Assembly: GCA_964420185.1 (NCBI GenBank)
Contig: CAYQSI010000010.1
Span: 4,456-68,455, forward strand
Direction: 5' to 3'
DNA length: 64,000 nt
Source: an uncultured Terracidiphilus sp.
Lineage (GTDB): Bacteria; Acidobacteriota; Terriglobia; Terriglobales; Acidobacteriaceae
The notes beneath the pieces are model-generated. The model ran no database searches, had not been told where the DNA came from, and saw nothing but the letters and a program-made list of their open reading frames with translations. Every line of letters starts with the position of its first letter. Position 1 is the first letter of the stretch. This document shows, piece after piece, positions 24,520 to 52,757 of this stretch. A program made the translations under genes and the position numbers.

Positions 24520-24701
24520 GAGTCTTTCCTTTGCTTGCAGACGGCTAGAGCCCTGTTGCAAACGGTGCGATTGAATGCAGAGATTCTACATCGGGGGGAA
24601 AGGGGCGTCGAGGAGGGTTTCTTGTCAGTGAGTACTATCCTTGCGGAAAACTGCGGGTCCGTCCTTCCACTGCCCACCCCAGCGCACAAAGAGTGCGCGC
24701 C

Positions 24702-25132
24702 GGGGACTGCGGTTCCGCGGCGCTTTGCTCCTGGTGAACGGGGAGGGATCAAATCCGGGGTTTTGAACAAATCAGCAAGTTAGCCACCGCTTCGCGGTGA
24801 TAGCGGGTTAGCAAGTTAGCGGATTTATGCAACTGGCGGTGTCTTCCTGCCCTAGTTCTCTGACCGGATAGTTCAACTTCAAGGAGTCAGAGACCTAGTC
24901 GGTGGGATGGCGGGATTCGGGGACTGCGGTTCTGCGGCGCTTTGCTCGTGGTGAACGGGGAGGGATCAAATCCGGGGTTTTGAACAAATCAGCAAGTTAG
25001 CCACCGCTTTGCGGTGATAGCGGGTTAGCAAGTTGGCGGATTTGTGCGACTGGCGGCGTCATCCTGTCCTAGTTCTCTGACCGGATGGTTCAACTTCAAG
25101 GAGTCAGAGACCTAGTCGGTGGGATGGCGGGA
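24702..25132 (+). repeat. Tandem duplication, 2 x about 217 bp (units 24702-24915 and 24919-25132)
   Basis: Each unit contains a family-D module, a GTTAGC hairpin element, a minimal family-B derivative and 'ctagtcggtgggatggcggga'. In unit 2 that last string is the final 7 codons of maf. Confidence 0.9.
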
Positions 25133-25813: not shown

Positions 25814-26884
25814 TTAAGCGGTAAGGCCGGTTTGGAAACCGGAGGGGGTGGCGAAACCCCAGGCCATGGCAGGGGTGTTGTGAGCAAGGCCGAAGCGGCC
25901 GTCGGGCCCGAGGAGGATGATGCCGCCGTGGCCGCCAAGACGGTTGAAGAGGTAGGCGATGGCTTCGCGGGCGGCTAACTCGGGGGCGGCGCCGCTGGCA
26001 ACGCGGTCGGTGGCCCACTTGCCGAGGACCAGCTTCATGATGGGCTCTCCCCAGCCGGTGAGAGAGACGGCGGCGGAGAGATTGTCGGCGTAGCAACCGC
26101 AGCCGATGAGGGAAGAGTCGCCGACGCGGCCAGGAGTCTTGTTGAGGGTGCCACCGGTGGAGGTGCCGGCGGCGAGGTTGCCTTGGGAGTCGAGAGCAAC
26201 AGCGCCAACGGTATCGTGGGACCACTTCGTGGGGTTCTCGAAAGGCTTCGTGGGGACTCCGGTCTTCCACCCCACCGACAAAGACCCGTCGCTGGGGACC
26301 CCGGTTTCCGGACTCTTGTCGTCGAAGAAGTCTGGATCCAGGGGGGTATCCAGGCCGGAGAAGGTGTTGTCGCCGAGACCGGCGGCCTCACGGATCTTGG
26401 CATGGGCGAGGCGCTCGCGCTCACGGTCCAGGACCAACTCGGCATTGTCGATGAGGGGCATCCCGAGGGATTGGGCAAACTGCTCAGCGCCGACGCCGAC
26501 GAAGTAGACGTGAGGACTCTTTTCGAGAACCAGGCGGGCAGCCTGAATGGGATTGCGGAGATGTTCTACGCAAGCCACGCCGCCAGCCTTCATGCGGCCA
26601 CCGTCCATGAGGAGCGCGTCGAGCTGAACGCGTCCGTCGGAGGTAAGAAAACTGCCACGGCCGGTGTCGAAGGTGGGGTCATCTTCGAGGACGGTGACGG
26701 CGGCCTCGACCGCATCGAGAGAAGAACCGCCGCGAGTAAGAAGGGCGTAGCCGGCTTCAAGCGCGTTGCGGACGCCGGCTTCATGAGCAGCCGCCGCGTC
26801 AGCGGGGATGGCCCAAGCGCCACCGTGGACTAAAAGAGTGGGAGCATGCAAGGCTGATTTCGTCACTAGAATATCGTAGAACAT
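25814..26884 (-). CDS. isoaspartyl peptidase / L-asparaginase (Ntn hydrolase, Asparaginase_2)
   Basis: 'LLVHGGAWAIP', 'LEDDPTFDTGRGS', the autoprocessing site 'HDTVGAVALD' and 'GTSTGG'. Confidence 0.88.
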   Translation of the reverse strand: MFYDILVTKSALHAPTLLVHGGAWAIPADAAAAHEAGVRNALEAGYALLTRGGSSLDAVEAAVTVLEDDPTFDTGRGSFLTSDGRVQLDALLMDGGRMKAGGVACVEHLRNPIQAARLVLEKSPHVYFVGVGAEQFAQSLGMPLIDNAELVLDRERERLAHAKIREAAGLGDNTFSGLDTPLDPDFFDDKSPETGVPSDGSLSVGWKTGVPTKPFENPTKWSHDTVGAVALDSQGNLAAGTSTGGTLNKTPGRVGDSSLIGCGCYADNLSAAVSLTGWGEPIMKLVLGKWATDRVASGAAPELAAREAIAYLFNRLGGHGGIILLGPDGRFGLAHNTPAMAWGFATPSGFQTGLTA

Positions 26885-27834: not shown

Positions 27835-30800
27835 ATGAAGCTCACGAATCACAAGGGTTTGCGCGCCGGCAGATGGATGGGGCTGTTGTTAGTAGTGGTG
27901 TGCCTGATGGGGATGGGCAGCGGGGCCTACGCACAGGCGATCAGCACGACGACGGTTCAGGGGACGGTGTATCTGGCGAACGGCCAGCCCGGCACAGGGA
28001 CACTGGTGGTGAGCTGGCCATCGTTTACAACGGCGAATGGTCAGTTGGTTGCCGCCGACAGTACGACGGTGGCGATTGCGCCGGACGGATTTGTAAGCGT
28101 GAATCTGGCTCCTAACTTGGGAGCGACGCCGGCGGGGCAGTATTACACAGCGGTTTACTACCTGAGCGACGGGACGACAAACACCGAGTATTGGATGGTG
28201 CCAGTGGGGGCGCAGGCGACCTTGGGGCAGGTGCAAGCGCAGTTGATGCCGGCGGCGCAGGCCGTTCAGGCGGTGAGCAAGGCATATGTGGACCAAGCGA
28301 TTGCAGGGGTTTCTGAAAGCCTGCTGACGGCGTCCGGCGGGACGTTGAGCGGGCCGCTGACCTTGAGCGGAGATCCGACACAGCCATTGCAGGCGGCGGA
28401 CAAGCACTATGTGGATGAGACGTTTGCACTAGCTGTACCGCAGGCGGGCGGAAGCATGACGGGAGCTTTGGCAACGCCGGCAGTGAATGGAGTGGAGTCT
28501 CCGGCGACGGGAAGCCCGCAGACGACACTGCAAGCGGCGATGAGCGCGGCGGGGAGCAATGGAGCGGTGGAGATTCCGCCGGCTTATGCGGGGACGGATG
28601 GATTCAATAATCCGAACGGCGTGTACGTGGCCGATTTGCGGCAGGGAAGCTCGCAGCAGTTTGAGCGCAGCGTGAAGGAATTCGGCGCGGTGTGCGATGG
28701 GAACACGGACGACACCAACGCGCTGCAGTCGGCGTTGAACTATGCCGAGACGCACGGGGTGGCATTGACGATTCCGCAGGGAACCTGCAAGACGCGGACC
28801 CTGATCTGGCATGGAGAGTCGATCGGCGGGATGGGCAAGCAGGTGTCCGCACTGATGGGCTTTCCCGGACAGGATGTGCTGTTGACGATGACCGACAGCG
28901 CAAACCTGCTGTCCTACACGCGGATTCACGATCTGACGATCTATGTAGATCAAAGCCAGGATGTATCTTGCTCGGCGGCCAAGGGGCTAGCACCGGCGGG
29001 AAGCTGCGCGCAGAATCGACCGCTGGAGAGCAACTCGATTTTTTCGCCAAGCGGGAACGGGCTGACCGGAACAGCAGGAAGCGGAACGGCGTGGGCGGTG
29101 GGCAATTGCGCGATTGCGATGCCGGCGACCACCGGAGCAGGCGGAAATGGGCTGAAGGTGGCGGAGCTCGAGAACCTGGAGATTGCGGCGACGGGCGCGG
29201 ACCCTATGGCTGCGCAGTATTCAGGCGCGCACTCGACGCACACTTGCGGGTTGTATCTGGCGCAGTGGCCGCAGTGGAGCGAGTTTCGGAACATCGATAT
29301 TCGCGGGCTGAATACGGGGATAGCAATTCCAGCTCTTTTCGGAACGACTCCAGCAGGATTAACCGCGGATTCAAATCGTTGGCAGAACATCACGATTCAG
29401 GCGACGCACGGGTTTACGACAGCGGCGGGCTCGAACAACGTGCTGGATAACTTGGTGGTGATAGCGGGAAATTCAGCGGCGACCGGCGAGCCGCCTACGG
29501 GCGTGGTGCTGGATTTTGCGGGAACGCAACAGGGCTGGACGGTACGGAATTCCGTAGTGCTGCCAGCGTGGAACGCAGTGCAACCGGTACTGACTGTGAC
29601 CGCAGTTGGCGGGGCGGTGACCGGGGTGGCGGTGGGTTCGCAGGCCGGACTGGGGTTTGATCCGTATGGAGCGCAGGTTCCGTTGGCGTTCAGCGGGAGT
29701 TGCACAGCGCAGGCCGTAGGCAATGTAACGAGCAACGGAGCAATTGGGACGGTCACGGTAACGTCGGGCGGGGTGGGGTGTTCGGGAACGACGACGGCGA
29801 GCGTGAATGTGGCTGGGACGTGGGACACAGCCGCGCCCGTAAACCTGATTGCCGGGCAGAATATGACGTTCTATGGCGGAAATCTTCTGAAGGGCAACGG
29901 AGGATACACGGTTTGGAACGCGGCAGGCTCCCAGAGCTATGGAACGCAGTTGGACGGCGGCGGCGGGAGATTGCCGAGCGGAGGAACTTATGCGGCGCTG
30001 GTGGCAAACAACCCGCTAGGAAGCGCATATCCGGTAGATCAGTTTCCAGGCGCGGACTTTGGGGCCAAGTTACAGGCATGTATCAGCGCGTTGAACGCGA
30101 GTTATGGCGGAACGTGCGATGCACGGAATTTCACAGGGAATCTATCGATGGGATCGAACCTGACGATAGCGACAGCGAATGCGACCGTACTGCTGCCGTG
30201 CGCGACGATTTCGACGGCTAATCAGGTGATTGTGACGGCGGGAACGAGGAATGTGTCGCTGCGCGGGTGCGCCATGCGCGGCGCGAGCACGGCGAGTGGA
30301 AGCCAGGGCGGCACGGTGTTTCTGTACTCAGGAGCAAAAGCGATGGTGCAGGTGGGAGATACAACCTATGCTGCGGATACGCTGGGTTTCCACCTGGACA
30401 ATGTGGTGATAAATACAACGGCCGCAAGCAATGCAACCGTGCAGGGACTGGCAGCCTACCGCACACAGGAAATGGAGCTGGAAAGCTTGTATTTCCTGGG
30501 TAACTCGAACCAGACCGGCATGACACTGGATGGGACCGGGAATTATACGGGGGGAACATTCCTCGACAACGAGTTCACCGGATTCCAGACAGCGGTGAAT
30601 GCCATCGGGCACCAGATATCGAACCCTGCGACGACCGATTGGATGAACGCGAGCACGTTTGTGCGGTTGCACATTGATTGCCCGACGAGCGGGGGAAGCC
30701 CCATCAGCGGGAGTTATGGAATCAACCTGCAGCAGGGTGATGGAAACACGTTTACCGGAGGAGATATAGAAGGATGCTCGACGGCATTGCACCTGGGGCC

Positions 30801-33800
30801 GAACGCGCAGAATAACACGATTGTAGGGCTGAGGAACGAAAACTCGACCAATCAGGTTGTGGCGGATGCGGGCAGCCAATACAACAACTGGATGACGGGC
30901 GGAACGATGTTAGCCGGGCAGTTGACTGACAACGGCACACGCAACAGCTTCTTCGATACTTATCACCGGAGTTTCAACGGACTGAATGGCGATTGGTACG
31001 GGAGCCAGAAGGACGCCACAGTTACCAACCACTATCGGCTTGGAATCGGAGCAGGCAACGAGCGCGGATTGCTGGACCGCTATCAAACCGACTATGGATA
31101 CCGGTGGACGATGGGCTTGAGCGACGCGACGGCCGGCGAGCAGTTCTACCAGATTCTGGATGAGTTGAATAATGTGTACCGCGTCTCGATCGGACAGTAT
31201 AACAACGGCCAATCGAGCACTAACAACCAGACGGTGATCAATGCGGCAGGAGCAGGCGCGGTAGTGCTGAACGGCTCAAACAACGCGGGGACCGGCGGGG
31301 TGGTGATCGGGTCAGGCGGCGCGAACGAAACCACTGTGGCAACGATCAGCAATGCCGGGGACGCGCAGTTCAACGGGATGCTGCAGGTGGGGGGCACTTC
31401 AACTTTTACAGGGACAGCTACGGTCAAGAACCAGGCCGATGCGGAGATTGATGCGACTCTGTGGGCGGGATTGACGACAAGCCAGAAAGAGTCGTTCATC
31501 TACAAAGACTGGAACGGCAACAGCCAGTGGTACATGATGAAGGACGGGAGCAATAACTGGGCGCTGAGTTCAGCTATAGGCGGTCTGGACAGCTTCAAGG
31601 CATACCAAAGCACAAACAGCGGCGATACCTACGTCGATGCATCGAACGCTTCCGGGGCAGTGCGCATCAACTACGAACCTGGATCGGGGGCTCAGTTCAA
31701 AGTATATGGAGGGAACAGCAGCACTCTCTATGCCTCCTTCACCGGACCAACATCGATTCAATTTCCGGGGATTGCGGCGAGCAGCGGTCATAACTGCCTG
31801 CAAATCGATAACTCTGGATATATCACCAATACCGGGACAACCTGCGGAACAGGAAGCACCAACGGCACGGTCAACGCCGGGACCAGCGGGCAGATAGCCT
31901 ATTACAACGGTGCAGGGACAGTACTGTCCGGAACAAGCACGGTTTCAATTGCGGCGGGAGGGACCGGGTCTTCGACGGCTTCAAGCGCGCTGACAAACCT
32001 GGGTGGGGCTGCGCTGGCGGGCGCGGCGTTTACGGGAGCGGTGAGTGCGCCGGCTATGTCTGCGAAGAATAGCGCCAGCATCGGGCCACGCTACGACGTG
32101 ACGCAGTATGGCGCAGTGGGCAACGGCTCGACCGATGATACGGCTGCGGTTCAGGCGGCTTTCAATGCTTGCTACAACGGTGGGACGGTTCCTTATGGCG
32201 GCGTGGTGGAGTTTCCGGGGAACAAAACCTACATTGTCTCCTCCACGATCAACGGCCATAACTCCTGCCAGGTGGAGGGCGTCGTTGGTAACTACACGGT
32301 GGCGAACGCACCGCCTAAACTCGCATGGAACGGCGCGGCTGCGGGAACGGTTTCGACCATCACCGCTTACAGCATCACGTCGAACGTGGCGACCTTTACC
32401 GCCGCGAACAGTCTGACCGTGGGACAGTTCGTCGATATTGAGGGGCTGACTACCGGCTTCTATCTGAATCGCGCTATCTTGCAGGTGACCACGGCTTCAA
32501 GCACTCAGTTCACGGCGACACTGCCCTTTGGCTGGGCTAATGTCGGTTCGACCTCCGACTCCGGTACGGCTACCACAGCCAACGTCATGCTGGCCTTCGA
32601 CTCCAATGCCCGGTATCAGCAGTCGATCAGTAATATGATGCTGTTGCCTGTGGCGCCCTTGGCGAGCAAGACGCTGCAAGTGGCCGCTTACTTCGGTTCT
32701 CGCGTGGACACCGGGACGCACATCCTCAACGTTGAAGCGGACAACGCGAGCGAGTATGGGTTCTACTTCGCAGACGGCGGAATCAATGTCGATTTCGACA
32801 AAGGATGGCGCTGCGATGGAGCGGGACTCTCCTGCATTTATTGGCGCGTGGGCGGGATCGATAACCTGAAGATCGCCAACGGTACGGTGGACAACAACTC
32901 CGGCGCGCAGATGACGGCGAGCGGCGGCGCTTTAATGCTGGACGATGGAGCTTGCAACGCCAACGATTCGATGTTGCTGTCTTCAAGCCACATGGATTTC
33001 GAGGTTAACTCGACCATTACTTCCGGCCTGGGAGTTTATACGTTCTATGACTGCCCTTCGAATAACGGAGTGGAATCATTCTACGTTTCGCTGGATGCGA
33101 ACAGGGTTGGTGGGGCTGGATTTTATACTGCGGGATTCAACTTCCCGACCATCGTCATGTCTCCCGCGAATGACGCGGCGCTGGGGTTGACGGTCATCAA
33201 CGGGGAGTTCGAGAGCGGTTCCGGGCCGAACAATTCTCCGCGCTGGGTTGGGTTGCCACAGTTACAACGGGACGATGCTTACGGGTATACAGGCCGGATT
33301 CCGTTTCTGAGTTTTGCTCCGGCGCTTGCAAGCGCGGGTTTGTCATCGAGTAATAAAACGCCAATTAGCCTGATTGACGATGTGCAGATTAGCCAACTGT
33401 GGCAGCATGGTGTGGCGGCTTCGGCCTTTCTCTACTCGGACACAGCTTTTGCAGCGATGCCCAACGGAACGACACTGTTCGCTGGCCAGATCCTTGCGCC
33501 TCCCAGTTACTGGAAGGGCGCGGCTGGGAAACGATATGCCCTTGACGTGGTGTATCAGACAGGAACGACAGGAACTCCGAACAGCGGGGCCACCACCTGC
33601 ACGGGCACCACTGCGGGCACTCTGACTTGTAGCAGCGCTACCGACTTATCGGTAGGTCAGAGGGTCGCGATCGGGACCGATACAAACAAGAACATCAACT
33701 ACGTGGATGCGACGAATCCGAGCGCGGTGCTGGTTTACGTTGGATGGCTTGCGCAGAATTATACGACGGCTACTGCTCTCTCGTTCTCCGCGCCGGTGCT

Positions 33801-34956
33801 TGGTCCAGAGATGCAGATGCCTACGAAGTCTTTCGCGATTCCTACGGCGCTGACCTGGAGCCAGGGTGACTATCTGCAAAACTCCGGCGCGGTAGCAAAT
33901 GGAATTGCGGGATGGGTCAATGTGGTTGCGGGCACGCCGGGAACGTGGGCCGGGATTCCGCTGGGTAACGCCAGTGGGCTGCTGAATCTATCTCAGATAT
34001 TCGGCACGTCCAGCACTAGCCCGGTGTGCCCGAATGGAACGGGCGGAACACTCACCACAGTTGGATGCGTGAGTGGTGGGAGTAGCGGTGTAACAAGCAT
34101 TAACAGCAACACCGGCGCGTTCACCTTCAATGGCGCCGGGGTGAGCTGCACCGGGACTACCTGTTCTTTCACCGGCGGTACAGGCAGCGGCACGGTGCAG
34201 AGTGGTACGGCCTACTCTCCGGCGTACTATCCTTCGGGCGGTGGAACGGTAGTGGCTGGTGTGACTCCGTTCAGCGGCCTTGCATGGTGGTCAACGAGCG
34301 CGGCTCCGGCTCAGGCGACGGCGGCGCAGATCGTGGGCGCCATCGGCTCGACAGCAGTTACCAATGCAACCAACGCAGCCAATCTATCCAACGGCGCAGT
34401 TGGCTCACTGCCGTATCAGAGCGCGGCGGGTGCGACAGCCTTTGTCGCCAGCCCCACGACCAGCGGCCACACGTTTGTGCCAGCTTGGCAGCCGAGCGGC
34501 TCGGCTATCGCGCCAGGAGCCGTTGATGTCAGTACCTTGAATGTTAATTCGGCGGCCACAGCAACAGCTCTGAGCGCAGCTTCCGCGCTACCCAACGGCA
34601 CGACAAGCACTACGCAGGCCACAGCAGATACCAGCACGGATCTAGCTACAGATGCTTTCACTCATAACGTAGCCTATCCGGTTGCCAATACGACCTTCAC
34701 GACCAGCACGGCGAGCGTAGCGGCGAACACCTGTAACTCTACCGTGCAGGTTGCCATGAGTGGAGTAACAACCAGCATGACCTTCCTCATCACTCCTAGC
34801 GCAGACACAAGCGGCGCAACGGGGTGGGGTAGCACCGGAGGTTTAATTCTGGATGTGTGGCCCACTGCGGGCTATCTTAACTACAAGATTTGCAACCAGA
34901 CTGCGACGGCCATTTCTTTACCCAGCGCGGTGACGTTCAACGCGGGAGCGAGATAG
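27835..34956 (+). CDS. Giant (2373 aa) secreted tail-fibre/tailspike-like protein with two pectate-lyase-fold (beta-helix) modules
   Basis: Sec-type leader 'GLLLVVVCLMGMGSGAYAQA'. Tail-fibre collar words 'SGGTLSGPLTLSGDPTQPLQAADKHYVDE' and, near the C-terminus, 'GTTSTTQATADTSTDLATDAFT'. Two beta-helix N-cap signatures: 'VKEFGAVCDGNTDDTNALQSALNYA' (about nt 28670) and 'VTQYGAVGNGSTDDTAAVQAAFNAC' (about nt 32095). Confidence 0.85.
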   Translation: MKLTNHKGLRAGRWMGLLLVVVCLMGMGSGAYAQAISTTTVQGTVYLANGQPGTGTLVVSWPSFTTANGQLVAADSTTVAIAPDGFVSVNLAPNLGATPAGQYYTAVYYLSDGTTNTEYWMVPVGAQATLGQVQAQLMPAAQAVQAVSKAYVDQAIAGVSESLLTASGGTLSGPLTLSGDPTQPLQAADKHYVDETFALAVPQAGGSMTGALATPAVNGVESPATGSPQTTLQAAMSAAGSNGAVEIPPAYAGTDGFNNPNGVYVADLRQGSSQQFERSVKEFGAVCDGNTDDTNALQSALNYAETHGVALTIPQGTCKTRTLIWHGESIGGMGKQVSALMGFPGQDVLLTMTDSANLLSYTRIHDLTIYVDQSQDVSCSAAKGLAPAGSCAQNRPLESNSIFSPSGNGLTGTAGSGTAWAVGNCAIAMPATTGAGGNGLKVAELENLEIAATGADPMAAQYSGAHSTHTCGLYLAQWPQWSEFRNIDIRGLNTGIAIPALFGTTPAGLTADSNRWQNITIQATHGFTTAAGSNNVLDNLVVIAGNSAATGEPPTGVVLDFAGTQQGWTVRNSVVLPAWNAVQPVLTVTAVGGAVTGVAVGSQAGLGFDPYGAQVPLAFSGSCTAQAVGNVTSNGAIGTVTVTSGGVGCSGTTTASVNVAGTWDTAAPVNLIAGQNMTFYGGNLLKGNGGYTVWNAAGSQSYGTQLDGGGGRLPSGGTYAALVANNPLGSAYPVDQFPGADFGAKLQACISALNASYGGTCDARNFTGNLSMGSNLTIATANATVLLPCATISTANQVIVTAGTRNVSLRGCAMRGASTASGSQGGTVFLYSGAKAMVQVGDTTYAADTLGFHLDNVVINTTAASNATVQGLAAYRTQEMELESLYFLGNSNQTGMTLDGTGNYTGGTFLDNEFTGFQTAVNAIGHQISNPATTDWMNASTFVRLHIDCPTSGGSPISGSYGINLQQGDGNTFTGGDIEGCSTALHLGPNAQNNTIVGLRNENSTNQVVADAGSQYNNWMTGGTMLAGQLTDNGTRNSFFDTYHRSFNGLNGDWYGSQKDATVTNHYRLGIGAGNERGLLDRYQTDYGYRWTMGLSDATAGEQFYQILDELNNVYRVSIGQYNNGQSSTNNQTVINAAGAGAVVLNGSNNAGTGGVVIGSGGANETTVATISNAGDAQFNGMLQVGGTSTFTGTATVKNQADAEIDATLWAGLTTSQKESFIYKDWNGNSQWYMMKDGSNNWALSSAIGGLDSFKAYQSTNSGDTYVDASNASGAVRINYEPGSGAQFKVYGGNSSTLYASFTGPTSIQFPGIAASSGHNCLQIDNSGYITNTGTTCGTGSTNGTVNAGTSGQIAYYNGAGTVLSGTSTVSIAAGGTGSSTASSALTNLGGAALAGAAFTGAVSAPAMSAKNSASIGPRYDVTQYGAVGNGSTDDTAAVQAAFNACYNGGTVPYGGVVEFPGNKTYIVSSTINGHNSCQVEGVVGNYTVANAPPKLAWNGAAAGTVSTITAYSITSNVATFTAANSLTVGQFVDIEGLTTGFYLNRAILQVTTASSTQFTATLPFGWANVGSTSDSGTATTANVMLAFDSNARYQQSISNMMLLPVAPLASKTLQVAAYFGSRVDTGTHILNVEADNASEYGFYFADGGINVDFDKGWRCDGAGLSCIYWRVGGIDNLKIANGTVDNNSGAQMTASGGALMLDDGACNANDSMLLSSSHMDFEVNSTITSGLGVYTFYDCPSNNGVESFYVSLDANRVGGAGFYTAGFNFPTIVMSPANDAALGLTVINGEFESGSGPNNSPRWVGLPQLQRDDAYGYTGRIPFLSFAPALASAGLSSSNKTPISLIDDVQISQLWQHGVAASAFLYSDTAFAAMPNGTTLFAGQILAPPSYWKGAAGKRYALDVVYQTGTTGTPNSGATTCTGTTAGTLTCSSATDLSVGQRVAIGTDTNKNINYVDATNPSAVLVYVGWLAQNYTTATALSFSAPVLGPEMQMPTKSFAIPTALTWSQGDYLQNSGAVANGIAGWVNVVAGTPGTWAGIPLGNASGLLNLSQIFGTSSTSPVCPNGTGGTLTTVGCVSGGSSGVTSINSNTGAFTFNGAGVSCTGTTCSFTGGTGSGTVQSGTAYSPAYYPSGGGTVVAGVTPFSGLAWWSTSAAPAQATAAQIVGAIGSTAVTNATNAANLSNGAVGSLPYQSAAGATAFVASPTTSGHTFVPAWQPSGSAIAPGAVDVSTLNVNSAATATALSAASALPNGTTSTTQATADTSTDLATDAFTHNVAYPVANTTFTTSTASVAANTCNSTVQVAMSGVTTSMTFLITPSADTSGATGWGSTGGLILDVWPTAGYLNYKICNQTATAISLPSAVTFNAGAR

Positions 34957-36221: not shown

Positions 36222-37793
36222 GTGGAGGGAACAACGGAAGGATGCGCGGCAGTTGCGGAGGAAAGGCTTCTGCGCCCGGAGGAACTGGACCGGGAAGAAC
36301 TGGTGCGGTATGGGGGGATTCTGGACCAGCGTCCGGCGAGCTTGGGGGGGCGGAGCGTGGGGATGGCGCTGGCTGAGCAGCTTCTGCTGGTGAGGACGCG
36401 GGAGGGATGGACGGCACCGCTGAAGGCGAATGCGGCGCAGTGGGCCTTCGAGCGGCGGCGGGGCGAGCGGAATATCGTGCTGAAGGCGCGGCAACTGGGA
36501 CTGACGACCTGGGCGGCGGCGCGGTTCTTTCTGAAGACGATCACTCAGCCGGGAACACTGACGCTGGAAGTGGCCCATACGCAGGAGGCTGCCGAAGAGA
36601 TTTTTCGGATTGTGCACCGGTTTCTGGATTGGCTGCCGGAGGAGTTGCGTGAAGGGCCTTTACGGACTTCGCGGGCCAATGTGCGGCAGATCGTTTTCCC
36701 GGAGATGGATGCACAGTACAGAGTTGTATCGGCGGGAGATCGGAATGCGGGGCGGGGATTGACGGTGCAGAACCTGCACTGTTCGGAACTGGCACGGTGG
36801 CCGGGCGACCCGGCGGAGACACTGGCGGGGCTGCGGGCGGCGATGGCGCCGGGTGCGGAGCTGATTTTGGAATCAACGCCAGACGGGGTGGGCGGATGCT
36901 TCCACGAAGAGTGGCAGAAGGCCGGCGAGACGGGGATCGTACGGCACTTTTTCCCCTGGTGGATGGAACGGCGGTACCGGGGCAAGGCGGTGGACGCAGC
37001 GAGCCTGACCGAAGAGGAGCAGGAACTGCGGACGCGGAAACGACTCGATCTGGAGCAGATTGGCTTTCGGCGGCAGGTGCGGGCGGATTTCCGTGGGTTG
37101 GCGCGGCAGGAGTACGCAGAAGACGAAGAAAGCTGCTTTCTGGCCAGCGGGGATTCGGTCTTTGAGCTTTCAGCAATCGAGGCGCGATGGGCAACGATGA
37201 CGGCCCCGTCGGAAGTACGGCACAACGGGGATCTGGAGATTTGGCTGCCGCCGTTGAAGGGCAAGGAGTACCTGGTAGCGGTGGACCCTGCGGGCGGCGG
37301 AAGTGAGGGCGACTATTCGGCGGCGCAGGTGATAGAGCTAGAGACGGGGTTACAGTGCGCGGAGTTTGCCGGACACGTGGGAGGGTTGGAACTGGCGCGG
37401 CTGGTGACGGGCCTGGCTACGGAGTACAACCAGGCGTGGCTGGTGGTGGAGAGGAACAACCACGGCAGCGGAGTTCTGGCGCTGATCGAGACAGTGTGCG
37501 GCTACGGACGGGTTTATCGGCAGGGAGGACAAGCGGGTTGGCTGACCACGCAAATGAGCCGGCCGGCGGCGTTGGGGCGGCTGGATGCGGGGTTGGTGGA
37601 GAAACCGGAATGCTTCCAGAGCCGGCTGCTGCTGGCCGAGTGCCGGAGTTTTGTGAGGTTGCCGAACGGTGGAACAGGAGCGCGTCCGGGAACGCATGAC
37701 GATCGGGTGATGGCGATGGCGATCGGGCTGGGGGCAAGGGCGGAAATGCTGGCCACTTGCGGTGGGGCCAACTTTCACATTGGACGAAACTAA
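36222..37793 (+). CDS. Phage terminase large subunit
   Basis: Deviant Walker A 'VLKARQLGLTTW', 'VQNLHCSELARW', and the C-terminal RNaseH-like nuclease 'EGDYSAAQV...VVERNNHGSG...GTHDDRVMAMAIGL'. Starts at GTG 36222 or ATG 36363. Confidence 0.85.
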   Translation: MEGTTEGCAAVAEERLLRPEELDREELVRYGGILDQRPASLGGRSVGMALAEQLLLVRTREGWTAPLKANAAQWAFERRRGERNIVLKARQLGLTTWAAARFFLKTITQPGTLTLEVAHTQEAAEEIFRIVHRFLDWLPEELREGPLRTSRANVRQIVFPEMDAQYRVVSAGDRNAGRGLTVQNLHCSELARWPGDPAETLAGLRAAMAPGAELILESTPDGVGGCFHEEWQKAGETGIVRHFFPWWMERRYRGKAVDAASLTEEEQELRTRKRLDLEQIGFRRQVRADFRGLARQEYAEDEESCFLASGDSVFELSAIEARWATMTAPSEVRHNGDLEIWLPPLKGKEYLVAVDPAGGGSEGDYSAAQVIELETGLQCAEFAGHVGGLELARLVTGLATEYNQAWLVVERNNHGSGVLALIETVCGYGRVYRQGGQAGWLTTQMSRPAALGRLDAGLVEKPECFQSRLLLAECRSFVRLPNGGTGARPGTHDDRVMAMAIGLGARAEMLATCGGANFHIGRN

Positions 37794-37819
37794 TTATGAG
37801 AAGGCTGATTCAGGTTCGC

Positions 37820-37866
37820 GGTTTCCTACCCTTTTCGCCAAGAACGCGAAAAGGATGGGGCACGGA
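37820..37866. repeat. Family-A MITE core fragment
   Basis: 'ggtttcctacccttttcgccaagaacgcgaaaaggatggggcacggag'. Confidence 0.7.
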
Positions 37867-37897
37867 GATTTTGGGTGGTACGGGGTTTTGGATAAGA

Positions 37898-37956
37898 GCA
37901 GCAAGTTAGCCCCCGCTGAAGCGGGGATAGCGAGTTAGCAGGTTAGCGGATAGCAA
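37898..37956. repeat. GTTAGC hairpin element
   Basis: 'gcagcaagttagcccccgctgaagcggggatagcgagttagcaggttagcggatagcaa'. Confidence 0.8.
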
Positions 37957-38091
37957 GGGGACAAGGTGTAGCGGCTGGGAAATGATCGAGAGGCTGGCGG
38001 AAAATTCCTTGAAAGTGGGATGGGGTGCGGAGGATTTTGGCTGGAGAGCTTAGAATTCGATTGAGGTTGTGAACGAGGCGGGGGAACGGGC

Positions 38092-38961
38092 TTGGCGGTT
38101 CTGGCGGTGCAGCATATCCGGCGGATGCGGGGCGGCGCGCAGGGCCAGTTGATGCTGGGCGCGGATGGCCACGTCTACGTGGTGAAGTTTCAGAACAACC
38201 CGCAGCATATCCGGGTGCTGGCCAACGAGTTTTTGGCCTCGCGGCTTGCGGCGGCTGCCGGACTGACGGCGCCGGAAGTGGAATTGGTGGAGGTTTCGAG
38301 CTGGCTGGTGGAGAATACGCCGGAGCTGGAGATAGATCTGGGCAGAAGCCGGGTGCGCTGCCATGCGGGCTTGCAGTTTGGATCGCGGTTTGTGGGTGGT
38401 CTGATGCCGGGGCAGGTGGTGGATTATTTGCCCGAGGAACAGATGGCCGAGGTAAGGAACCTGGGTGAGTTTGCCGGCATCCTGGCGCTAGACAAGTGGA
38501 CGGGAAATGCCAACGGACGGCAGGCGGTCTTTGCGCGCAAACAGCGGGAGCGGCGCTACCGGGCGGTCTTCATCGACTACGGGTATTGCTTTCACGCCGG
38601 AGACTGGACGCTCGAGGATCTTCCGCTGCGCGGGGTCTACTATCGCAACGATGTTTACCGGGGGATTACTGGATGGGAGTCGTTTGAGCCGTGGCTGACA
38701 CGGCTGGAGACGATGGCGGCGGAGACGGTGTGGGCGGCGGCGAATGAAGTTCCTCCGGAGTGGTATGGCGGCGACCTGAGCGAGATGGAGGCGCTGGTGG
38801 AAAAACTGCTGGCGCGACGGAGCCGGATTCGGGAGCTGATTGAAGGCTTCGGAAGGTCGGATCGGAAGCCATTTCCAAAATGGGTGGGGATGGGAAAGAA
38901 AATCGGGGATGAGGGTTGGCAGGATGCAAGGTGGGGTAGCATCGAAGGAAGAGTGATGTAG
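38092..38961 (+). CDS. HipA-like (Ser/Thr kinase fold) protein
   Basis: 289 aa (TTG start in the ORF track; the exact start is uncertain). Has 'GGAQGQLMLGADGHVYVVKFQNNPQHIRVLANEFLASRLA', the catalytic-loop-like 'LALDKWTGNANGRQ' and the metal-binding-like 'VFIDYGYCF'. Confidence 0.7.
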   Translation: MAVLAVQHIRRMRGGAQGQLMLGADGHVYVVKFQNNPQHIRVLANEFLASRLAAAAGLTAPEVELVEVSSWLVENTPELEIDLGRSRVRCHAGLQFGSRFVGGLMPGQVVDYLPEEQMAEVRNLGEFAGILALDKWTGNANGRQAVFARKQRERRYRAVFIDYGYCFHAGDWTLEDLPLRGVYYRNDVYRGITGWESFEPWLTRLETMAAETVWAAANEVPPEWYGGDLSEMEALVEKLLARRSRIRELIEGFGRSDRKPFPKWVGMGKKIGDEGWQDARWGSIEGRVM

Positions 38962-38978
38962 AAGGGGCGAAAGCCAGC

Positions 38979-39815
38979 ATGAATGGTGGGAATGAGCGGC
39001 GGGCATGCGAGTTTCAACTGCTCCGGTATGTGCCGGACGCGGTAAGGAACGAGTATGTGCATATCGGGGTGATCCTGCGTGAGCAGGGTAGCCGGGAGCC
39101 GGCGCAGGTGCAGTTTACCCGCGACTGGCGCCGTGTGCGCTGCCTGGATCCGGATGCCGACACCGCGCTGCTGGAAGGGATGGAGAGCGAACTGCGGAAG
39201 CGCTTCCAGGAAGAGCCCGATGGGAAGTTGATGCGGCTGCTTTCCGAAGCACTCTCATTGAATGTGCAGATGACGGAACCCAAGGCTTATCTGGCGGAGA
39301 GCCTTCCGGCGGGAATGGAAGAGTTGATGCGGCTTTATGTGGAGCCGCCACCCAGAGCGCGCGTCTCGCGGTTGAGCGGACGGGCGGCAATCCAGGCGAA
39401 GATGCGGACAGAGTTCGAGCGGGCTGGGGTATGGGATTTGCTGAGGAAGAAGATCGCGGCCTCGGAGTACACGCGGCCGGGAGACCCGCTGCGGATCGAC
39501 GTGGGGTACAGGCCGAATGGGGTAATCCGGATGTTTCATGCGGTGAGTCTGGAACCGGGCGTGGAGATGGCCAAGGTGCTGGCCTTTTCTTCGGCGGGAC
39601 TGAGGGCCGGCGTGGAGCGGGTGGAGAAGGCACAACTGGAGCTGACCGCGGTGATTGAGCCCGCGGCAAAGCTGGGAGCGACAGACGAAGAGCCGGAACG
39701 GCTGGAGATGTACCGGTTTGGCGTGGAGACGATGGAAGAGCACCAGATTCGGGTGCTGACGACGTCGGACCTGGGCCGGGTGGCGGAGACTGCACGGCGG
39801 GAACTGCGGGTGTGA
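38979..39815 (+). CDS. DUF3037 domain protein
   Basis: 278 aa. The N-terminal 'FQLLRYVPDAVRNEYVHIGVILRE' matches the DUF3037 signature as I remember it (Y.v.R.vP...reEf.NvGvil). Lies 17 nt after the kinase gene. Confidence 0.7.
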   Translation: MNGGNERRACEFQLLRYVPDAVRNEYVHIGVILREQGSREPAQVQFTRDWRRVRCLDPDADTALLEGMESELRKRFQEEPDGKLMRLLSEALSLNVQMTEPKAYLAESLPAGMEELMRLYVEPPPRARVSRLSGRAAIQAKMRTEFERAGVWDLLRKKIAASEYTRPGDPLRIDVGYRPNGVIRMFHAVSLEPGVEMAKVLAFSSAGLRAGVERVEKAQLELTAVIEPAAKLGATDEEPERLEMYRFGVETMEEHQIRVLTTSDLGRVAETARRELRV

Positions 39816-40044
39816 GGGCGAGCTGAAAGCTCGCCAGTTGACAGCTAACAGCTTACAGTTGACAGCTTTCAGTACCCAGTGATTGGCAGCAAAATATTAC
39901 AGAATGGATTGCAGATAGTTTCTGGTGTTTGCGGTAGGATAGGTTTTGTGAGTTAGAAATTTCCAGCTAAAGGATGATAACTACCAGCTTTAGCTGATGG
40001 CTCAAAACTGATAACTGTTAGCTGATAGCTGTCAGCTAGAAAAA

Positions 40045-40081
40045 GGCATGGCCCTTTCCGGGGCTGTGCCTTTTTGTTTTT
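40045..40081 (+). terminator. Intrinsic terminator closing the kinase/DUF3037 unit
   Basis: A 10-bp stem, GGCATGGCCC (40045-40054) paired with GGGCTGTGCC (40061-40070), with two G-U pairs and a 6-nt loop. It is followed by 'tttttgttttt' and preceded by an A-run. Confidence 0.65.
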
Positions 40082-40104
40082 GGGGCGGAAAAAGGAAGGT
40101 GCAC

Positions 40105-41385
40105 GTGAAGGTAGGAGAGCAGTTGCGGGAGATCTGGCGGCAGGCGACGGGGAGTGGCCGTAGGGCGGATTTAGCGGCGGGCGCGGCCGATGCGGAGGCG
40201 GAGCGAAAGACGCTGGCGCTTCCTGCGATCTTGAGTCCGGTCCAGTTTCCGGGGCAACTCTTGCCCAAGCCGACACCGATGAATCTGCGCCGGTTTGCGG
40301 AGACGCCGGTGGTGCGCCGGGCGATCAATGTGATCAAGGATCGCATTGCGGCGATGGACTGGCAGGTGAGAGTGCGGCGCGGAGTGCGGCCGGTAGATTT
40401 GGCCTTTGCGGAGCGCAAGTTGCGGGCGCTGCGCAGGACACTGGAAGAGCCGAACGCCGTGGACAGCTTTCGGACCCTGATAGAACAGGTGATCGAAGAC
40501 GCGCTAACGGGCGGATACGGGGCGATCGAGATGGAGCCGACCGGGGACGGAGAGCGTCCGGCGATGCTATGGGCTGTGGATGGGGCGTCGATCCGGATCA
40601 ACCCCAGGTGGGATGGGCAGCCGGAGACGCCACGCTACGCGCAGGCGCTGCCGGGGCAACTGGAGTCGAGCGCTATCGATTTGCGCGACGACCAACTGAT
40701 GTATGTGCGGATGAATCCGCGCAGCTTTACGCCCTTTGGACTGGGACCGCTGGAAGTGGCTTTCGAGACGGTGAATCAGTTTTTGAGCGCGCACCGGTTT
40801 GCGGGCAAGCTGGCGGCCAACACCGTGGCGCAATATGCGCTGTGGCTGAACGAGGCGACGCCCACGCAGCACGACCGTCTGATCCGCTGGTGGCAGGACG
40901 AGATCGAGGGAACGGGCCGCGTGCCACTGATTTCGACCGAGCAGAAGCCGGAGGTGTTGCGGTTTGCGCAAGGGACGGATGCGGATATGCGGCTGGCCTG
41001 GCAGGAGTTTCTGATCCGGATGGTGGCCAATGCTTTTGGGCTGCCGCCGCTACTGCTGGGGCTGGAGGCAGATGTCAACCAGTCAACCGCATCGGAGATG
41101 AACGACGAGGCCTTCCGCGGGGCGATCTCGCCGCTGGCGATGTTACTGGCCGGGCACATTACGCGAGACCTTTTCGGCAAGTGCATAGGATGGCGGGAGT
41201 TTGAGTTTGTCTTCAACGAGCTGAATGCGAGAGACGAGGAGACAGAGTTGGCGGTGCAGGTACAACTGCTGAAGGCCAATGTATTGACGGTGAACGAGGT
41301 GCGGGCGATGCGAGGGCTGGGACCGCTGGGGCAGGATGGAGCGGTGCAGTTGACAGGGGAAGCGGCAGCGGAGCAGGCGGGCTAG
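40105..41385 (+). CDS. Phage portal protein
   Basis: The ORF 40048-41385 is trimmed to the GTG after the AAGGAAGG site because the ORF's 5' end covers the terminator. The size, the position after terL, and an alpha/beta portal-like sequence ('FAETPVVRRAINVIKDRIAAMDW', 'WWQDEIEGTGRVPLIS') support the call. Confidence 0.7.
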   Translation: MKVGEQLREIWRQATGSGRRADLAAGAADAEAERKTLALPAILSPVQFPGQLLPKPTPMNLRRFAETPVVRRAINVIKDRIAAMDWQVRVRRGVRPVDLAFAERKLRALRRTLEEPNAVDSFRTLIEQVIEDALTGGYGAIEMEPTGDGERPAMLWAVDGASIRINPRWDGQPETPRYAQALPGQLESSAIDLRDDQLMYVRMNPRSFTPFGLGPLEVAFETVNQFLSAHRFAGKLAANTVAQYALWLNEATPTQHDRLIRWWQDEIEGTGRVPLISTEQKPEVLRFAQGTDADMRLAWQEFLIRMVANAFGLPPLLLGLEADVNQSTASEMNDEAFRGAISPLAMLLAGHITRDLFGKCIGWREFEFVFNELNARDEETELAVQVQLLKANVLTVNEVRAMRGLGPLGQDGAVQLTGEAAAEQAG

Positions 41386-42548: not shown

Positions 42549-42620
42549 AAGCAGCTTTCAGCGAATAGCTCACAGCTAACAGCAGACCGGTAACAAGCGG
42601 CCTCCTTCTCGTGGCTGCAA

Positions 42621-49406: not shown

Positions 49407-51224
49407 TTACCCAATGTTCTTTTCCCAGCGCTTGGGGCGGCGGTTTTGCTGCAATATCCTCTTGCGCAACCGCAGAGACTTGGGCGTGATTTCCACCACC
49501 TCATCCTCGGCGACGAACTCGATGGCCTGCTCCAGGTTCAGGGCTTTGTAAGGCACCAGGCGGACGGCTTCATCGGCGGTCGAGGCGCGCATGTTGGTCA
49601 TATGCTTCTCGCGCACCACGTTCACGTCGAGGTCGTTATCGCGTGAGTGCTCGCCGACGATCATTCCCTCGTAAACCTCAACCCCCGCGCCTACAAACAA
49701 AACTCCGCGCTCTTGCAGGCCGTTCAGCGAATAGGTTGTGGTAAGTCCCTGGCGGTCGGAAATCAACGCGCCGGTGGGCCGCTGCGGAATCTCACCCTGA
49801 TAGGGGATGTAACCGTCGAAGAGTGAGTTCATCACGATGGTGCCGCGCGTATCGGTGAGCATCTCGCTGCGCAGGCCGATGATGCCGCGGCTGGGTACAC
49901 GGAACTCCATGCGCACGCGGCCCGAGCCGTGATTGTGCATCTTGGTCATTTCGCCCTTGCGCGGCCCCAGCTTTTCGATCACCACGCCGGTGTACGCATC
50001 GGGCACGTCGATGGTCAGGCGCTCGACCGGCTCCATGTTCACGCCGTCCACCGTCTTGGTGACGATCTCAGGCCGCCCGGCCATCAGCTCAAAGCCCTCG
50101 CGGCGCATCATCTCGATCAAAATCGCAAGTTGCAGTTCGCCCCGGCCCAGCACCTTGAAGCTGTCTGGCGAGCCGGTCTCTTCCACGCGAATCGAGACGT
50201 TGATGAGCAGTTCTTTTTCCAGGCGCTCGCGCAGGTTGCGGCTGGTTACATACTGACCCTCGCGCCCGGCAAAGGGCGAGTTGTTCACGCTGAACTGAAT
50301 GGCGATGGTCGGCTCGTCAATCACAATCAGCGGCAGCGGCGCGGGGTTTTCGACGCTGGTGATGGTCTCGCCGATGGTGATGCCCTCGACGCCAGCGACG
50401 GCCACAATGTCGCCCATGACGGTCTCGGCAATTTCAGTCCGCTTCAGGCCGGAGAAGGTGAAGAGCTTGGTGATGCGCGTCTTCATCAGTGACCCATCGC
50501 GCTTGGAAATGGTCACATCGTCGCCGGTGCGCAGTGTGCCCTGGAAGACGCGGCAAATGGCGATGCGGCCCAGATAATCGGAGTAATCGAGATTGGTGAC
50601 CAGAATCTGCAATGTACCCTCGGCGTCGCCGGTGGCTGGCGGAATCGTCGAGACGATGGCCTCGAAGAGCGGCTGCAGGTCCACGCCAGGCGTGTCCGGA
50701 TCGAGGGATGCCGTGCCCGCTTTGGCCACTGCGTAGAGTACCGGGAAGTCCAGTTGCGTCTCGTCCGCATCGAGGTCGATGAAGAGGTCGTAGATCTCGT
50801 TCAATACTTCCTTGGGGCGGGCGTCGGGGCGGTCAATCTTGTTGATCACCACGATGGGCTTGAGCTTGGCTTCCAAAGCCTTGGACAGTACGTAACGGGT
50901 CTGCGGCAACGGGCCTTCGGCCGCGTCAACGAGAAGCATTACCCCGTCCACCATCTTGAGAGCGCGCTCCACTTCGCCGCCAAAGTCGGCGTGGCCGGGC
51001 GTATCTACGATGTTGATCTTGCCGCCTTCAAAAACGATGGCCGTGTTCTTGGACAGGATGGTGATGCCGCGCTCCCGCTCCAGCTCGTTCGAGTCCATCA
51101 CTCGTTCTGCCACCTGCTCGTTGGCGCGGAACGTCCCCGACTGCCGCAGCATGGCGTCTACAAGGGTTGTCTTGCCGTGGTCAACATGGGCAATGATGGC
51201 GATATTGCGTATCGTCTGGGTCAC
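49407..51224 (-). CDS. typA: translational GTPase TypA/BipA
   Basis: GTG start at 51224 lies after AAGGAAAAG. '[25 protein letters not shown]', '[14 protein letters not shown]' and 'NKIDR', with full-length collinearity to BipA. Confidence 0.93.
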
Positions 51225-51458
51225 AGGGTAGCTTTTCCTTCTTTTGGTTCGGCCTAAGAGGCCATAGGGTTGGGGAACAAATAAGTCAATTCGCCGCACA
51301 CTGCGGCACTTTCTATTGTATCAGCAGGGGAGAAAAGCAGATTCTTGGGCCTATGATCCCGCTTCAAATGGCCTGAAGACGGCAGCAAACAGCCTGGTTC
51401 CGGACCCGAGGCGCGCGATTCGCGGTAAGATGGGTCTCGCTTCGCTTTTGCCTAACCT

Positions 51459-52058: not shown

Positions 52059-52757
52059 TTAGTGAGTTGGACCTGCGCCACTTGTCATTCTCTTCAAATA
52101 GAACGGAGTAGACCACCCGCTGGAGGGAGCAGAGACCGCGAGGCTCGTTAATAATCTGCAGTTGATTTCCTTTATTCCGTCCTCAAACGATGAGTGCAAT
52201 AAACACTTTGGAATCCATTCATTTTGGGTTTTCAATACCTTGAGTATTTGTTCGGCTTTGTGAATATCGATATAACCTTCGTCGTAAAGAAAAGCAAACA
52301 TGTCGTATGACCTGAATACCTTTGGTGGAAGCTGTTTTCCGCTTGATTCCAGCGCCCGTATTGCATTCGCATCGTTGCTAACTGTAGGAGTGTCCAATAG
52401 TATACCTGCCGCATGTGTATAAGCTTCGCCGGTCCCGACATAAAGAGCATAATCTTTTCCAAGCCGTCTGATATCTGCTAGAGAGACAGACGCAGACATT
52501 ACGGAACTCAGTTGCTCTAGATCTGAGGAACTCAAGATTTTAAGGTGCCCGCTCTTTAAGGAGCTATCTAATGGAATCCTCACAAGCGCCCCAAGTTTCC
52601 TATTAGAGCGAACCTCAACCTCAACTTCACTCATAATGTACGAAGAAACCCCAAAGTCTGTGAAAAGAACCTTGAAAAGCTGCTGCTGACCGGCCAGTAG
52701 AATTTGGAGTAGAGCATCCGAGTCGAAAAAGAACGAAACTTCCGGCTCGGTAGCCAT
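52059..52757 (-). CDS. PIN-like domain protein (putative nuclease)
   Basis: 232 aa. The acidic residues are spaced as in PIN domains: 'SFFFDSDALLQIL', 'MSEVEVEV' and 'GEAYTHAAGILLDTPTVSNDANAI'. The start codon overlaps the upstream stop (TAATG). Sits in a low-GC region. Confidence 0.5.
   Translation of the reverse strand: MATEPEVSFFFDSDALLQILLAGQQQLFKVLFTDFGVSSYIMSEVEVEVRSNRKLGALVRIPLDSSLKSGHLKILSSSDLEQLSSVMSASVSLADIRRLGKDYALYVGTGEAYTHAAGILLDTPTVSNDANAIRALESSGKQLPPKVFRSYDMFAFLYDEGYIDIHKAEQILKVLKTQNEWIPKCLLHSSFEDGIKEINCRLLTSLAVSAPSSGWSTPFYLKRMTSGAGPTH

Follow-up and report, generated by a model that had tools for sequence, protein, structure and literature searches.

Kinase and DUF3037 genes at the terL–portal junction

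The window analyzed here is a 64-kb stretch of the genome of an uncultured Terracidiphilus sp. (contig CAYQSI010000010.1 of assembly GCA_964420185.1). Two adjacent open reading frames (ORFs) in this window, coding for a HipA-like kinase (ORF A) and a DUF3037 protein (ORF B), lie between the large terminase subunit gene (terL) and the portal gene of a phage-derived gene cluster. Judging from profile comparisons, A and B form a distant member of the validated HipA_2 + DUF3037 family (PDC-M66 / DS-6 / HipAD). The pair type itself is thus already known and was validated in relatives in 2025–2026; new is its setting, in which a distant clade of a known system is locked at the terL–portal junction of a host-like phage-derived cluster. 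An initial annotation of this DNA had already described both ORFs, and their lengths, their distance of 17 nucleotides (nt) and all peptides quoted from them were confirmed at the following positions:

38092–38961, forward strand: ORF A, HipA_2-family Ser/Thr kinase of 289 amino acids (aa) with a TTG start codon (Pfam, PHROG and PADLOC matches)
38979–39815, forward strand: ORF B, two-domain DUF3037 protein of 278 aa (Pfam, PHROG and PADLOC matches)

ORF A matched the Pfam family HipA_2 (PF20613; E = 4.9e-11, 42.8 bits with a cut-off of 27), while its match to HipA_C remained below the threshold (26.1 bits against a cut-off of 30.5). The kinase motifs comprise a loop at G14-G-A-Q17, a lysine at K32 (VVKF), the catalytic loop D134-K-W-x-x-N139 and D162 (IDYG). 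GGAQ, K32, D134/N139 and D162 were invariant in 61 orthologs and in alignments reaching ~55% identity. An AlphaFold2 (AF2) model of A, which was built on an alignment of 78 homologs, had a predicted local distance difference test score (pLDDT) of 79.5 and a predicted template modeling score (pTM) of 0.80. In a Foldseek search against the PDB, this model retrieved PI4KIIalpha (E = 3.4e-5) and Helicobacter pylori CtkA (E = 8e-5), followed by Fam20C and HipA (E-values of 3e-5 to 1e-2 overall); the matched HipA structures were 4pu4, 3tpv, 2wiu, 3fbr, 3dnv and 3dnt. The modeled fold of A is that of the HipA / PI3-4-kinase-like kinases, and its sequence is that of a compact HipA-like Ser/Thr kinase with a predicted active site that is both intact and invariant.

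ORF B matched Pfam DUF3037 (PF11236) over aa 12–121 (E = 3.6e-17, 63.1 bits with a cut-off of 22.6). Clustering at 50% identity divides the B family (E ≤ 1e-3) into 878 clusters, of which many are full length. The AF2 model of B, based on an alignment of the window protein and 70 diverse representatives, had a mean pLDDT of 93.8. The protein consists of an N-terminal DUF3037 domain (~aa 8–121), a linker of low confidence (aa 128–131) and a C-terminal alpha/beta domain (~aa 134–278). No Pfam family covers the region of the C-terminal domain in any of the 71 members. Near-invariant residues of the B family include R135, Y164, D169, D174 and Y177. The PDB matches of the model were weak (best E = 6e-3), and all had the PD-(D/E)xK restriction-endonuclease-like fold: Can2, Card1, Cdn1, the small subunit of R.BspD6I, NucS/EndoMS, XisH, XPF and cap-snatching endonucleases. 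A search of BFVD retrieved two phage proteins that are homologous over their full length (E = 3e-11 and 1.6e-10) and, next, endonucleases. These weak but consistent matches point to a restriction-endonuclease-like fold of the C-terminal domain, and the near-invariant residues would be candidates for a nuclease site.

The names assigned by NCBI to orthologs ("HipA family kinase" for A and "DUF3037 domain-containing protein" for B) agree with these results, and the pair also matched phrog_3162 and phrog_5137. The assignment of A and B to HipA-like kinases and DUF3037 proteins, as proposed initially, is hence supported by Pfam matches above the cut-offs and by the kinase fold found with Foldseek. 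PDB sequence searches with A and B, carried out with the single proteins and with profiles, yielded nothing significant, with HipA (4pu3/4pu5) appearing only at E = 1.3. No NCBIfam model matched A or B, and a tblastn search of both proteins against 50,697 GenBank phage records gave zero matches.

Relationship to experimentally studied systems

Both PADLOC models of the candidate defense system PDC-M66 were matched by the window pair (PDC-M66A by A, E = 6e-9; PDC-M66B by B, E = 6.6e-8). These matches are modest and partial, covering aa 5–126 of the kinase and aa 11–191 of its partner, and PDC-M66 is a bioinformatic candidate class to which no mechanism is attached. A closer reference is DS-6 of Escherichia coli, an anti-phage system that was found with DefensePredictor (Science 2026), has been renamed HipAD, and loses its defense activity when the catalytic site of the kinase is mutated (PMC13092281). 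AlphaFold3 predictions in the same paper suggested an A–B complex and contacts of the B protein with DNA (PMC13092281). HipAD was also identified independently in a survey of defense systems encoded by E. coli prophages (Brenes & Laub, Cell Host Microbe 2025, as cited in PMC13092281).

We compared the window proteins with DS-6A and DS-6B (sequences from Table S8 of PMC13092281) by profile–profile alignment using hhalign. A aligned with DS-6A over 203 columns (97.2% probability, E = 3.7e-11, 27% identity), and D134 of the window kinase (LDKW) was placed opposite D139 of DS-6A (FDKW), the residue that was changed to alanine in the DS-6 work. B aligned with DS-6B with 97.1% probability, E = 6.6e-11 and 21% identity, limited to aa 8–155. 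The systems resemble each other in the order of their two genes, with the kinase preceding the DUF3037 protein, in the compact HipA-like kinase (249 aa in DS-6, 289 aa in the window) that lacks the N-terminal domain of classical HipA, in the aligned catalytic aspartate of the xDKW motif, and in the partner of similar size (275 and 278 aa) with an N-terminal DUF3037 and a C-terminal domain. They differ in the gene junction, an overlap of 4 bp in DS-6 and a spacer of 17 nt in the window, and in the C-terminal domains of the partners, which did not align; that of DS-6B is annotated as DUF1829 (HHpred probability 0.78). Moreover, the window pair has a fixed place among the packaging and head genes of an acidobacterial cluster that is inherited vertically. 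DUF1829 is presumably also PD-(D/E)xK-like.

A second studied relative is a HipA-like/DUF3037 pair located beside Retron-Sda1, which on its own defends against phage Bas51 (PLoS Biol 2025, PMC12548924). Deletion of its kinase abolished defense, whereas deletion of the DUF3037 gene was toxic (PMC12548924). Its two-gene composition is identical to that of the window pair, and its toxin/neutralizer logic is the one we infer for the window. In contrast to the window pair, it accompanies the reverse transcriptase and noncoding RNA of a retron, though functionally independent of both, and the C-terminus of its DUF3037 protein resembles a retron-associated DNA-binding protein; the Sda1 pair is likened to the window pair here by its gene composition. 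With DS-6/HipAD and the Sda1-linked pair both tested, the statement in the initial annotation that neither this kinase subfamily nor DUF3037 had an experimentally assigned function is out of date.

Classical HipBA and HipBST systems belong to the same kinase superfamily and share the GxAQ loop, the VxKF lysine, the Dx4N motif and the downstream aspartate with A. Unlike in these systems, the window contains neither an upstream helix-turn-helix (HTH) antitoxin (HipB) nor the N-terminal subdomain of HipA, and the gene of the partner, a protein of unrelated fold, follows that of the kinase. Compared with the hallmarks of type II HipBA toxin–antitoxin (TA) modules, the kinase is short (289 aa, versus ~440 aa in HipA), and no HTH ORF was found upstream of A.

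The "Gratiaviridae" gut phages, too, have a HipA-family kinase, which is conserved throughout this group within the head-morphogenesis module and for which a function in superinfection immunity was proposed (Benler et al. 2021, PMC8008677). In contrast to the kinase in the window, the phage kinase is located between the portal and major capsid protein (MCP) genes, beside an AAA ATPase and a glycosyltransferase, and has no reported DUF3037 partner. The "Gratiaviridae" are bona fide Bacteroides phages, and the two kinases are likened here by position and family label.

Distribution and conservation of the gene pair

Relatives of the portal protein were detected in 578 GTDB species-representative genomes; they occur in hundreds of species of Acidobacteria, which are abundant in peat and soil. 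Our locus survey was anchored on this gene and compared the best 80 of these 578 genomes, all of which were Terracidiphilus or Acidobacteriaceae metagenome-assembled genomes (MAGs) with a portal protein 84–96% identical to that of the window. The pair was located directly 5' of the portal gene in 69 of the 80 informative loci. Forty-seven loci had the order terL–pair–portal (class i), 12 had host genes, the pair and the portal gene (class ii), 10 had the pair and the portal gene on contigs too short for terL, and in 11 loci the portal gene directly followed host genes, the pair and terL both being absent from its vicinity (class iii). The host genes preceding the pair or the portal gene in classes ii and iii were ordinary ones, for example genes for peptidase S9, lumazine synthase and an amino-acid permease. 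The arrangement classes were clade-coherent, with all 11 class-iii loci having a class-iii locus as nearest neighbor, and sequence relationships thus indicate that the classes differ by a few inherited rearrangements. Sequence identities to the window among the 80 loci were 76–93% for the kinase, 74–94% for the DUF3037 protein, 74–89% for terL, 83–98% for MCP and 85–94% for the host GTPase BipA.

More distant relatives retained the same arrangement. In a search with family profiles, all nine diverse IMG/VR contigs showed the order terL–kinase–DUF3037–portal–p175–MCP, with identities to the window of 36–61% (DUF3037), 58–64% (kinase), 50–60% (terL), 55–72% (portal) and 69–81% (MCP), and two further lineages (L104 and L105), represented by chromosomal contigs of 279–304 kb, had the gene order of these IMG/VR contigs. 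A distant soil lineage (L089/L090; identities of 55% for terL, 54% for the portal protein and 55% for the kinase) also carries the pair in the terL–portal slot, where it is inverted. On the basis of these gene orders, the pair appears to have resided in this slot since before the divergence of lineages whose terL proteins are only 50–60% identical. In L089/L090 the pair is convergent with terL, the 3' ends overlapping by 12 nt, and divergent from the portal gene.

Pairwise distances of the pair and of terL and portal, determined for the 32 loci having all five genes (terL, kinase, DUF3037, portal and MCP), were correlated (Spearman coefficients of 0.65–0.79), which shows their co-divergence. 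The ratios of nonsynonymous to synonymous substitution rates (dN/dS) were computed, as were synonymous rates (dS), across ~60 species. With dN/dS values of 0.125 (kinase) and 0.105 (DUF3037 gene), A and B are evidently no chance ORFs. Values for the other cluster genes ranged from 0.076 to 0.140, compared to 0.070 for the host gene bipA, and the median dS was 0.88–1.28 for the cluster genes versus 0.76 for bipA.

The kinase gene was upstream of and adjacent to the DUF3037 gene in every context examined, in line with the obligate partnership that had been proposed initially, and the sequence data thus describe an obligate pair under strong purifying selection. Two homologous pairs, one among host genes (L091) and one in an island (L092), have no phage-derived cluster of this type nearby, and the kinase/DUF3037 module is therefore able to stand alone. 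Conversely, the head-tail genes are intact in the 11 loci without the pair nearby, so the pair is not required for their retention.

These data bear on the idea that the pair is a selfish addiction (TA) module whose only effect is that loss of the pair and the flanking cluster is lethal, which would stabilize the cluster. Its TA-like architecture, the toxicity of the DUF3037 deletion in the Sda1 homolog, and the central position of the pair within a long-retained cluster would fit this idea. However, the active site of the kinase has been under sustained purifying selection in dozens of species, although toxin-dead variants would be neutral for a module of this kind; the pair was lost or moved from the portal locus in class iii while the head-tail genes were retained; and every gene of the cluster is itself under selection comparable to that on host genes. 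We consider a purely selfish role distinctly unlikely.

Fragmentary genes were observed in loci L001, L023, L047, L050 and L055. Pseudogenization was rejected as an explanation, as many genes were broken together in these loci, which suggests indel errors in long-read MAGs. In L092, a second, divergent HipA_2-like ORF (positions 3528–4304, 31% identity) is located ~5 kb upstream of the pair of that locus, and in L102 a partial extra DUF3037-like segment (positions 8940–9293) lies behind the kinase gene and ahead of the complete DUF3037 gene.

The phage-derived cluster and its chromosomal site

The pair is embedded in a cluster of phage-derived genes with the following main features and host flanks:

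27122–48829, forward strand: phage-derived packaging/head/tail cluster of ~22 kb (Pfam/PHROG annotation; same layout in independent assemblies)
36222–37793, forward strand: large terminase subunit gene terL (phrog_2, E = 1.5e-23)
40105–41385, forward strand: portal gene with corrected start (Phage_portal, E = 1e-52; invariant GTG)
25814–26884, reverse strand: host Asparaginase_2 gene, left flank (Pfam, E = 1.8e-93)
25112–25744: host maf gene, left of the asparaginase gene
49407–51299, reverse strand: host BipA/TypA GTPase gene, right flank (Pfam GTP_EFTU and BipA_C)

The identification of terL and portal as the genes flanking the pair, which dates back to the initial annotation, thus holds. 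From 5' to 3', the cluster comprises orf125, a gene for a giant fibre/appendage-like protein of 2373 aa, a lectin-like gene (224 aa), orf127, terL, the kinase and DUF3037 genes, portal, p175, a scaffold-like ORF, an MCP-like gene (322 aa), a head-tail adaptor gene (207 aa; phrog_442, E = 8e-18), and genes for proteins of 144, 164, 324 and 771 aa. No integrase, replication or recognizable lysis gene was found in the cluster, in which many ORFs lack an annotation, and no tRNA gene was found in the window.

Independent assemblies, with contigs as long as 660 kb, contain the same cluster between the same flanks. The Asparaginase_2 flank also occurs in loci L001–L005, L039, L060 and L078, a BipA match is present downstream in about half of the related loci, and RecA is likewise encoded on the right host side of the cluster. 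The GC content of the pair (0.60–0.61) equals that of the neighboring genes. The cluster is vertically inherited at a fixed chromosomal site and lacks an integrase. Its fixed flanks, host-like dS values, purifying selection, the co-divergence of its genes, and the presence of host repeats in its spacers (see below) are consistent with long vertical residence. The cluster is probably a domesticated element, which may be gene transfer agent (GTA)-like or co-opted in some other way and would form capsids.

With GTAs, such as RcGTA of Rhodobacter, the cluster shares a compact set of packaging, head and tail genes without integration, replication and regulatory modules, and also a fixed locus, vertical inheritance, purifying selection in many species, and the location of parts elsewhere in some lineages. 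The host phylum differs, however, and particle formation and the packaging of host DNA are hypothetical for the cluster. Described GTAs are not known to contain a kinase/DUF3037 pair. In the searchable literature we found no description of a GTA-like element in Acidobacteria; what previous papers on this phylum mention is limited to prophage-like regions that are conserved.

The giant appendage gene (27835–34956) was the most variable gene of the cluster, with identities of 48–88% over only 3–58% of its length. Such variability is the pattern expected of a receptor-binding protein under diversifying pressure. The MCP distances showed a poor correlation with the distances of the four other genes (terL, kinase, DUF3037 and portal; Spearman coefficients of 0.17–0.26, compared to 0.65–0.79 among these four). 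This points to recombination of the capsid gene or to its evolution under another regime.

Transcription signals and repeats around the gene pair

Conserved promoter-like elements were detected by cross-species alignment only. Together with the repeats, the following features were located around the pair:

38050–38056, forward strand: −10-like element TTAGAAT, candidate promoter of the pair (cross-species alignment)
39909–39940, forward strand: promoter-like block of the portal operon, TTGCAGATAGTTTCTGGTGTTTGCGGTAGGAT (cross-species conservation)
40040–40085, forward strand: intrinsic-terminator-like hairpin of 16 pairs with a T-tract (covariation and spacer conservation)
40092–40099, forward strand: portal Shine-Dalgarno sequence, invariant AAGGAAGG, preceding the invariant GTG at 40105
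37807–37953, no strand assigned: dispersed host repeats resembling repetitive extragenic palindromic (REP) elements in the terL–kinase spacer, families D19 (25510 / 37807) and D2/D10
39836–39872 / 40001–40037, no strand assigned: I1, inverted REP-like arms of AGCTNACAGCT units (37 nt, 81% complementary)

The motif [N]TAGAAT occurred in 53 of 59 loci of classes i and ii, 39–43 nt before the start codon of the kinase, within an otherwise unconserved spacer, and the start codon itself was conserved as TTG or GTG across loci. This element supports a dedicated promoter of the pair. Because a conserved TAGAAT lies ~40 nt before the start codon, a separate transcription unit, as put forward initially, is plausible. 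A scan for two-hexamer sigma-70 promoters between positions 36000 and 42000 returned none, and no Rfam RNA family was found between 37600 and 40500.

The portal operon has its own promoter-like block with the pattern TTGCAGATA-N14-20-TA[GC][GAT]AT, which has a single occurrence in the window. It was found 118–230 nt upstream of the portal GTG in 46 of 62 loci, including pairless loci of class iii. A block of this portal type was also present 33–36 nt before the kinase start in eight loci. The hairpin proper (40040–40075) is located ~100 nt 3' of the block in the window and ends ~7 nt before the portal Shine-Dalgarno sequence. It was present in all 56 species spacers, with compensatory changes in 8 of 10 pairs, and was kept in six class-iii loci (L044, L053, L058, L062, L072 and L074), where the pair is missing and a divergent gene of the host lies upstream. 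The initial annotation had regarded this structure as the pair's own intrinsic terminator. A hairpin with a T-tract does exist at this site; however, since it lies 3' of the conserved promoter-like block and persists without the pair, it is not simply a terminator of the pair, and the part of the separate transcription unit that was based on it is better assigned to the leader of the portal operon. The hairpin is a candidate 5' leader element of this operon, possibly an attenuator or antitermination checkpoint, that would also end transcripts of the pair.

The host repeats noted initially to the left of the pair are indeed dispersed families with copies in host regions; 9–10 copies of the D2/D10 repeats were found, including those at 1739, 13088, 18067, 24773, 27620, 37900, 42089 and 46488. 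To the right of the pair, the I1 arms flank the promoter-like block of the portal operon, and their AGCTNACAGCT unit family (D13) also occurs at 706 and 42553–42595. The long inverted repeat at 39836/40001 was considered as an operator and rejected, its units being dispersed host repeats. At least two dispersed REP-like families are present in the window, namely GCAAGTTAGC...CCCGCTTCGCGGGG...GTTAGCGG (1739, 2052, 13088, 18067, 24773, 27620, 37900, 42089 and 46488) and TCCCACCCTTGCCGCAAGAACAAAAACGCGGCAAGGATGGGGCACCC (5125, 18200, 41411, 42651 and 49308). They occupy intergenic spacers of host genes and of the phage-like cluster alike.

A promoter-like element before the two genes, a terminator-like hairpin behind them and repeats on the left are what one would find around a recent "moron" cassette inserted among the head genes of a mobile temperate prophage of the ordinary kind, the scenario underlying the initial annotation. 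The hairpin persists in cassette-less loci, though, and the flanking repeats are host REP-like elements that are also found in other spacers of the cluster. No integrase, attachment site or tRNA gene accompanies the cluster, whose host flanks recur in many species. The GC content of the pair equals that of its neighbors, its synonymous divergence is similar to that of a host gene, and the same slot is occupied in 69 of the 80 informative loci and in lineages with 50–60% terL identity. What had been taken for a moron in a mobile prophage is instead a lineage-wide, vertically inherited fixture of an integrase-less cluster, matched in GC content and co-diverging with terL and portal, and a recent cassette appears highly improbable.

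Putative function of the gene pair

By homology to the tested relatives, the window pair may have a role in defense or as a TA module. This would agree with the initial suggestion of a TA, abortive-infection or superinfection-exclusion module insofar as the distant homologs (DS-6/HipAD and the Sda1 pair) are such systems; for the window pair itself the suggestion holds by homology only. We favor, as rather likely, that the pair is an autonomous defense/TA module, fixed by now in a domesticated element and maintained for the benefit of the host. In analogy to its homologs, B would hold kinase A inactive until phage attack or another trigger frees the kinase. Freed A could then phosphorylate an essential host target, which for HipA-type kinases typically belongs to the translation apparatus, and the resulting cell arrest would abort the infection. 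Transcription of the pair would be separate from that of the structural operon, for which a promoter-like block and a leader terminator of its own are present.

Several points weigh against this interpretation. With 27% and 21%, sequence identity to the experimentally studied proteins is low, and the C-terminal domain of B failed to align with its DS-6B counterpart. The function of this clade is putative. Furthermore, defense cargo of prophages is usually variable, and a pair that keeps a single slot throughout a deep lineage is atypical of a mere passenger. Finally, the eight loci with a portal-type block before the kinase hint at co-regulation with the particle genes.

The same eight loci would be consistent with the pair being a functional part of the element, for example a kinase switch that gates particle production. 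Variants of this explanation include growth arrest or a cell fate decision of the producing subpopulation, or phosphorylation of packaging or head proteins, with B acting as a sensor or DNA-binding regulator. The terL–portal slot was kept in every lineage sampled (nine of nine IMG/VR contigs, L104, L105 and, inverted, L089), the pair co-diverges with terL and portal, and where terL is located elsewhere the pair stays on the portal side (class ii). The HipA-family kinase in the head module of the "Gratiaviridae" provides a positional precedent. In contrast, 11 species have intact portal-to-tail genes and no pair nearby, homologous pairs exist away from any such cluster, the tested relatives are stand-alone defense systems, and the promoter-like block and leader terminator of the structural operon separate the pair from this operon. 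A function within the element seems not very likely to us. It is unlikely, too, that Acidobacteria of the Terriglobales have a GTA-like particle system, so far undescribed and inherited vertically, of which the pair is an integral control module. In such a system, the pair would not serve solely as a passenger against phages; the kinase switch and the portal leader terminator would choose the particle-making cells or modify the packaging machinery, a mode of control that we regard as similarly doubtful.

The locus raises the questions whether defense-type kinase TA modules are ever co-opted into domesticated phage elements, and whether Acidobacteria possess a GTA-like system. If either were true, this would matter for phage resistance and gene flow in a soil phylum that is both dominant and difficult to work with.

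Other features of the window

A low-GC island at 52059–54142 (reverse strand; GC content of 0.47–0.50 versus ~0.60) adjoins recA. It encodes a protein of 461 aa that has an M78 peptidase domain of the ImmA/IrrE type and weak PADLOC matches to PDC-M69B, CapP and RmrA (E ~1e-7), and an abutting protein of 232 aa without family assignment. The island may represent a horizontally acquired defense or regulatory pair. Between 18410 and 24561 (reverse strand), three tandem paralogs of 667–686 aa share direct repeats of 300 nt at 78–84% identity. The one paralog that was scanned (22501–24561) contains DUF3857 and has a transglutaminase-like match below the cut-off.

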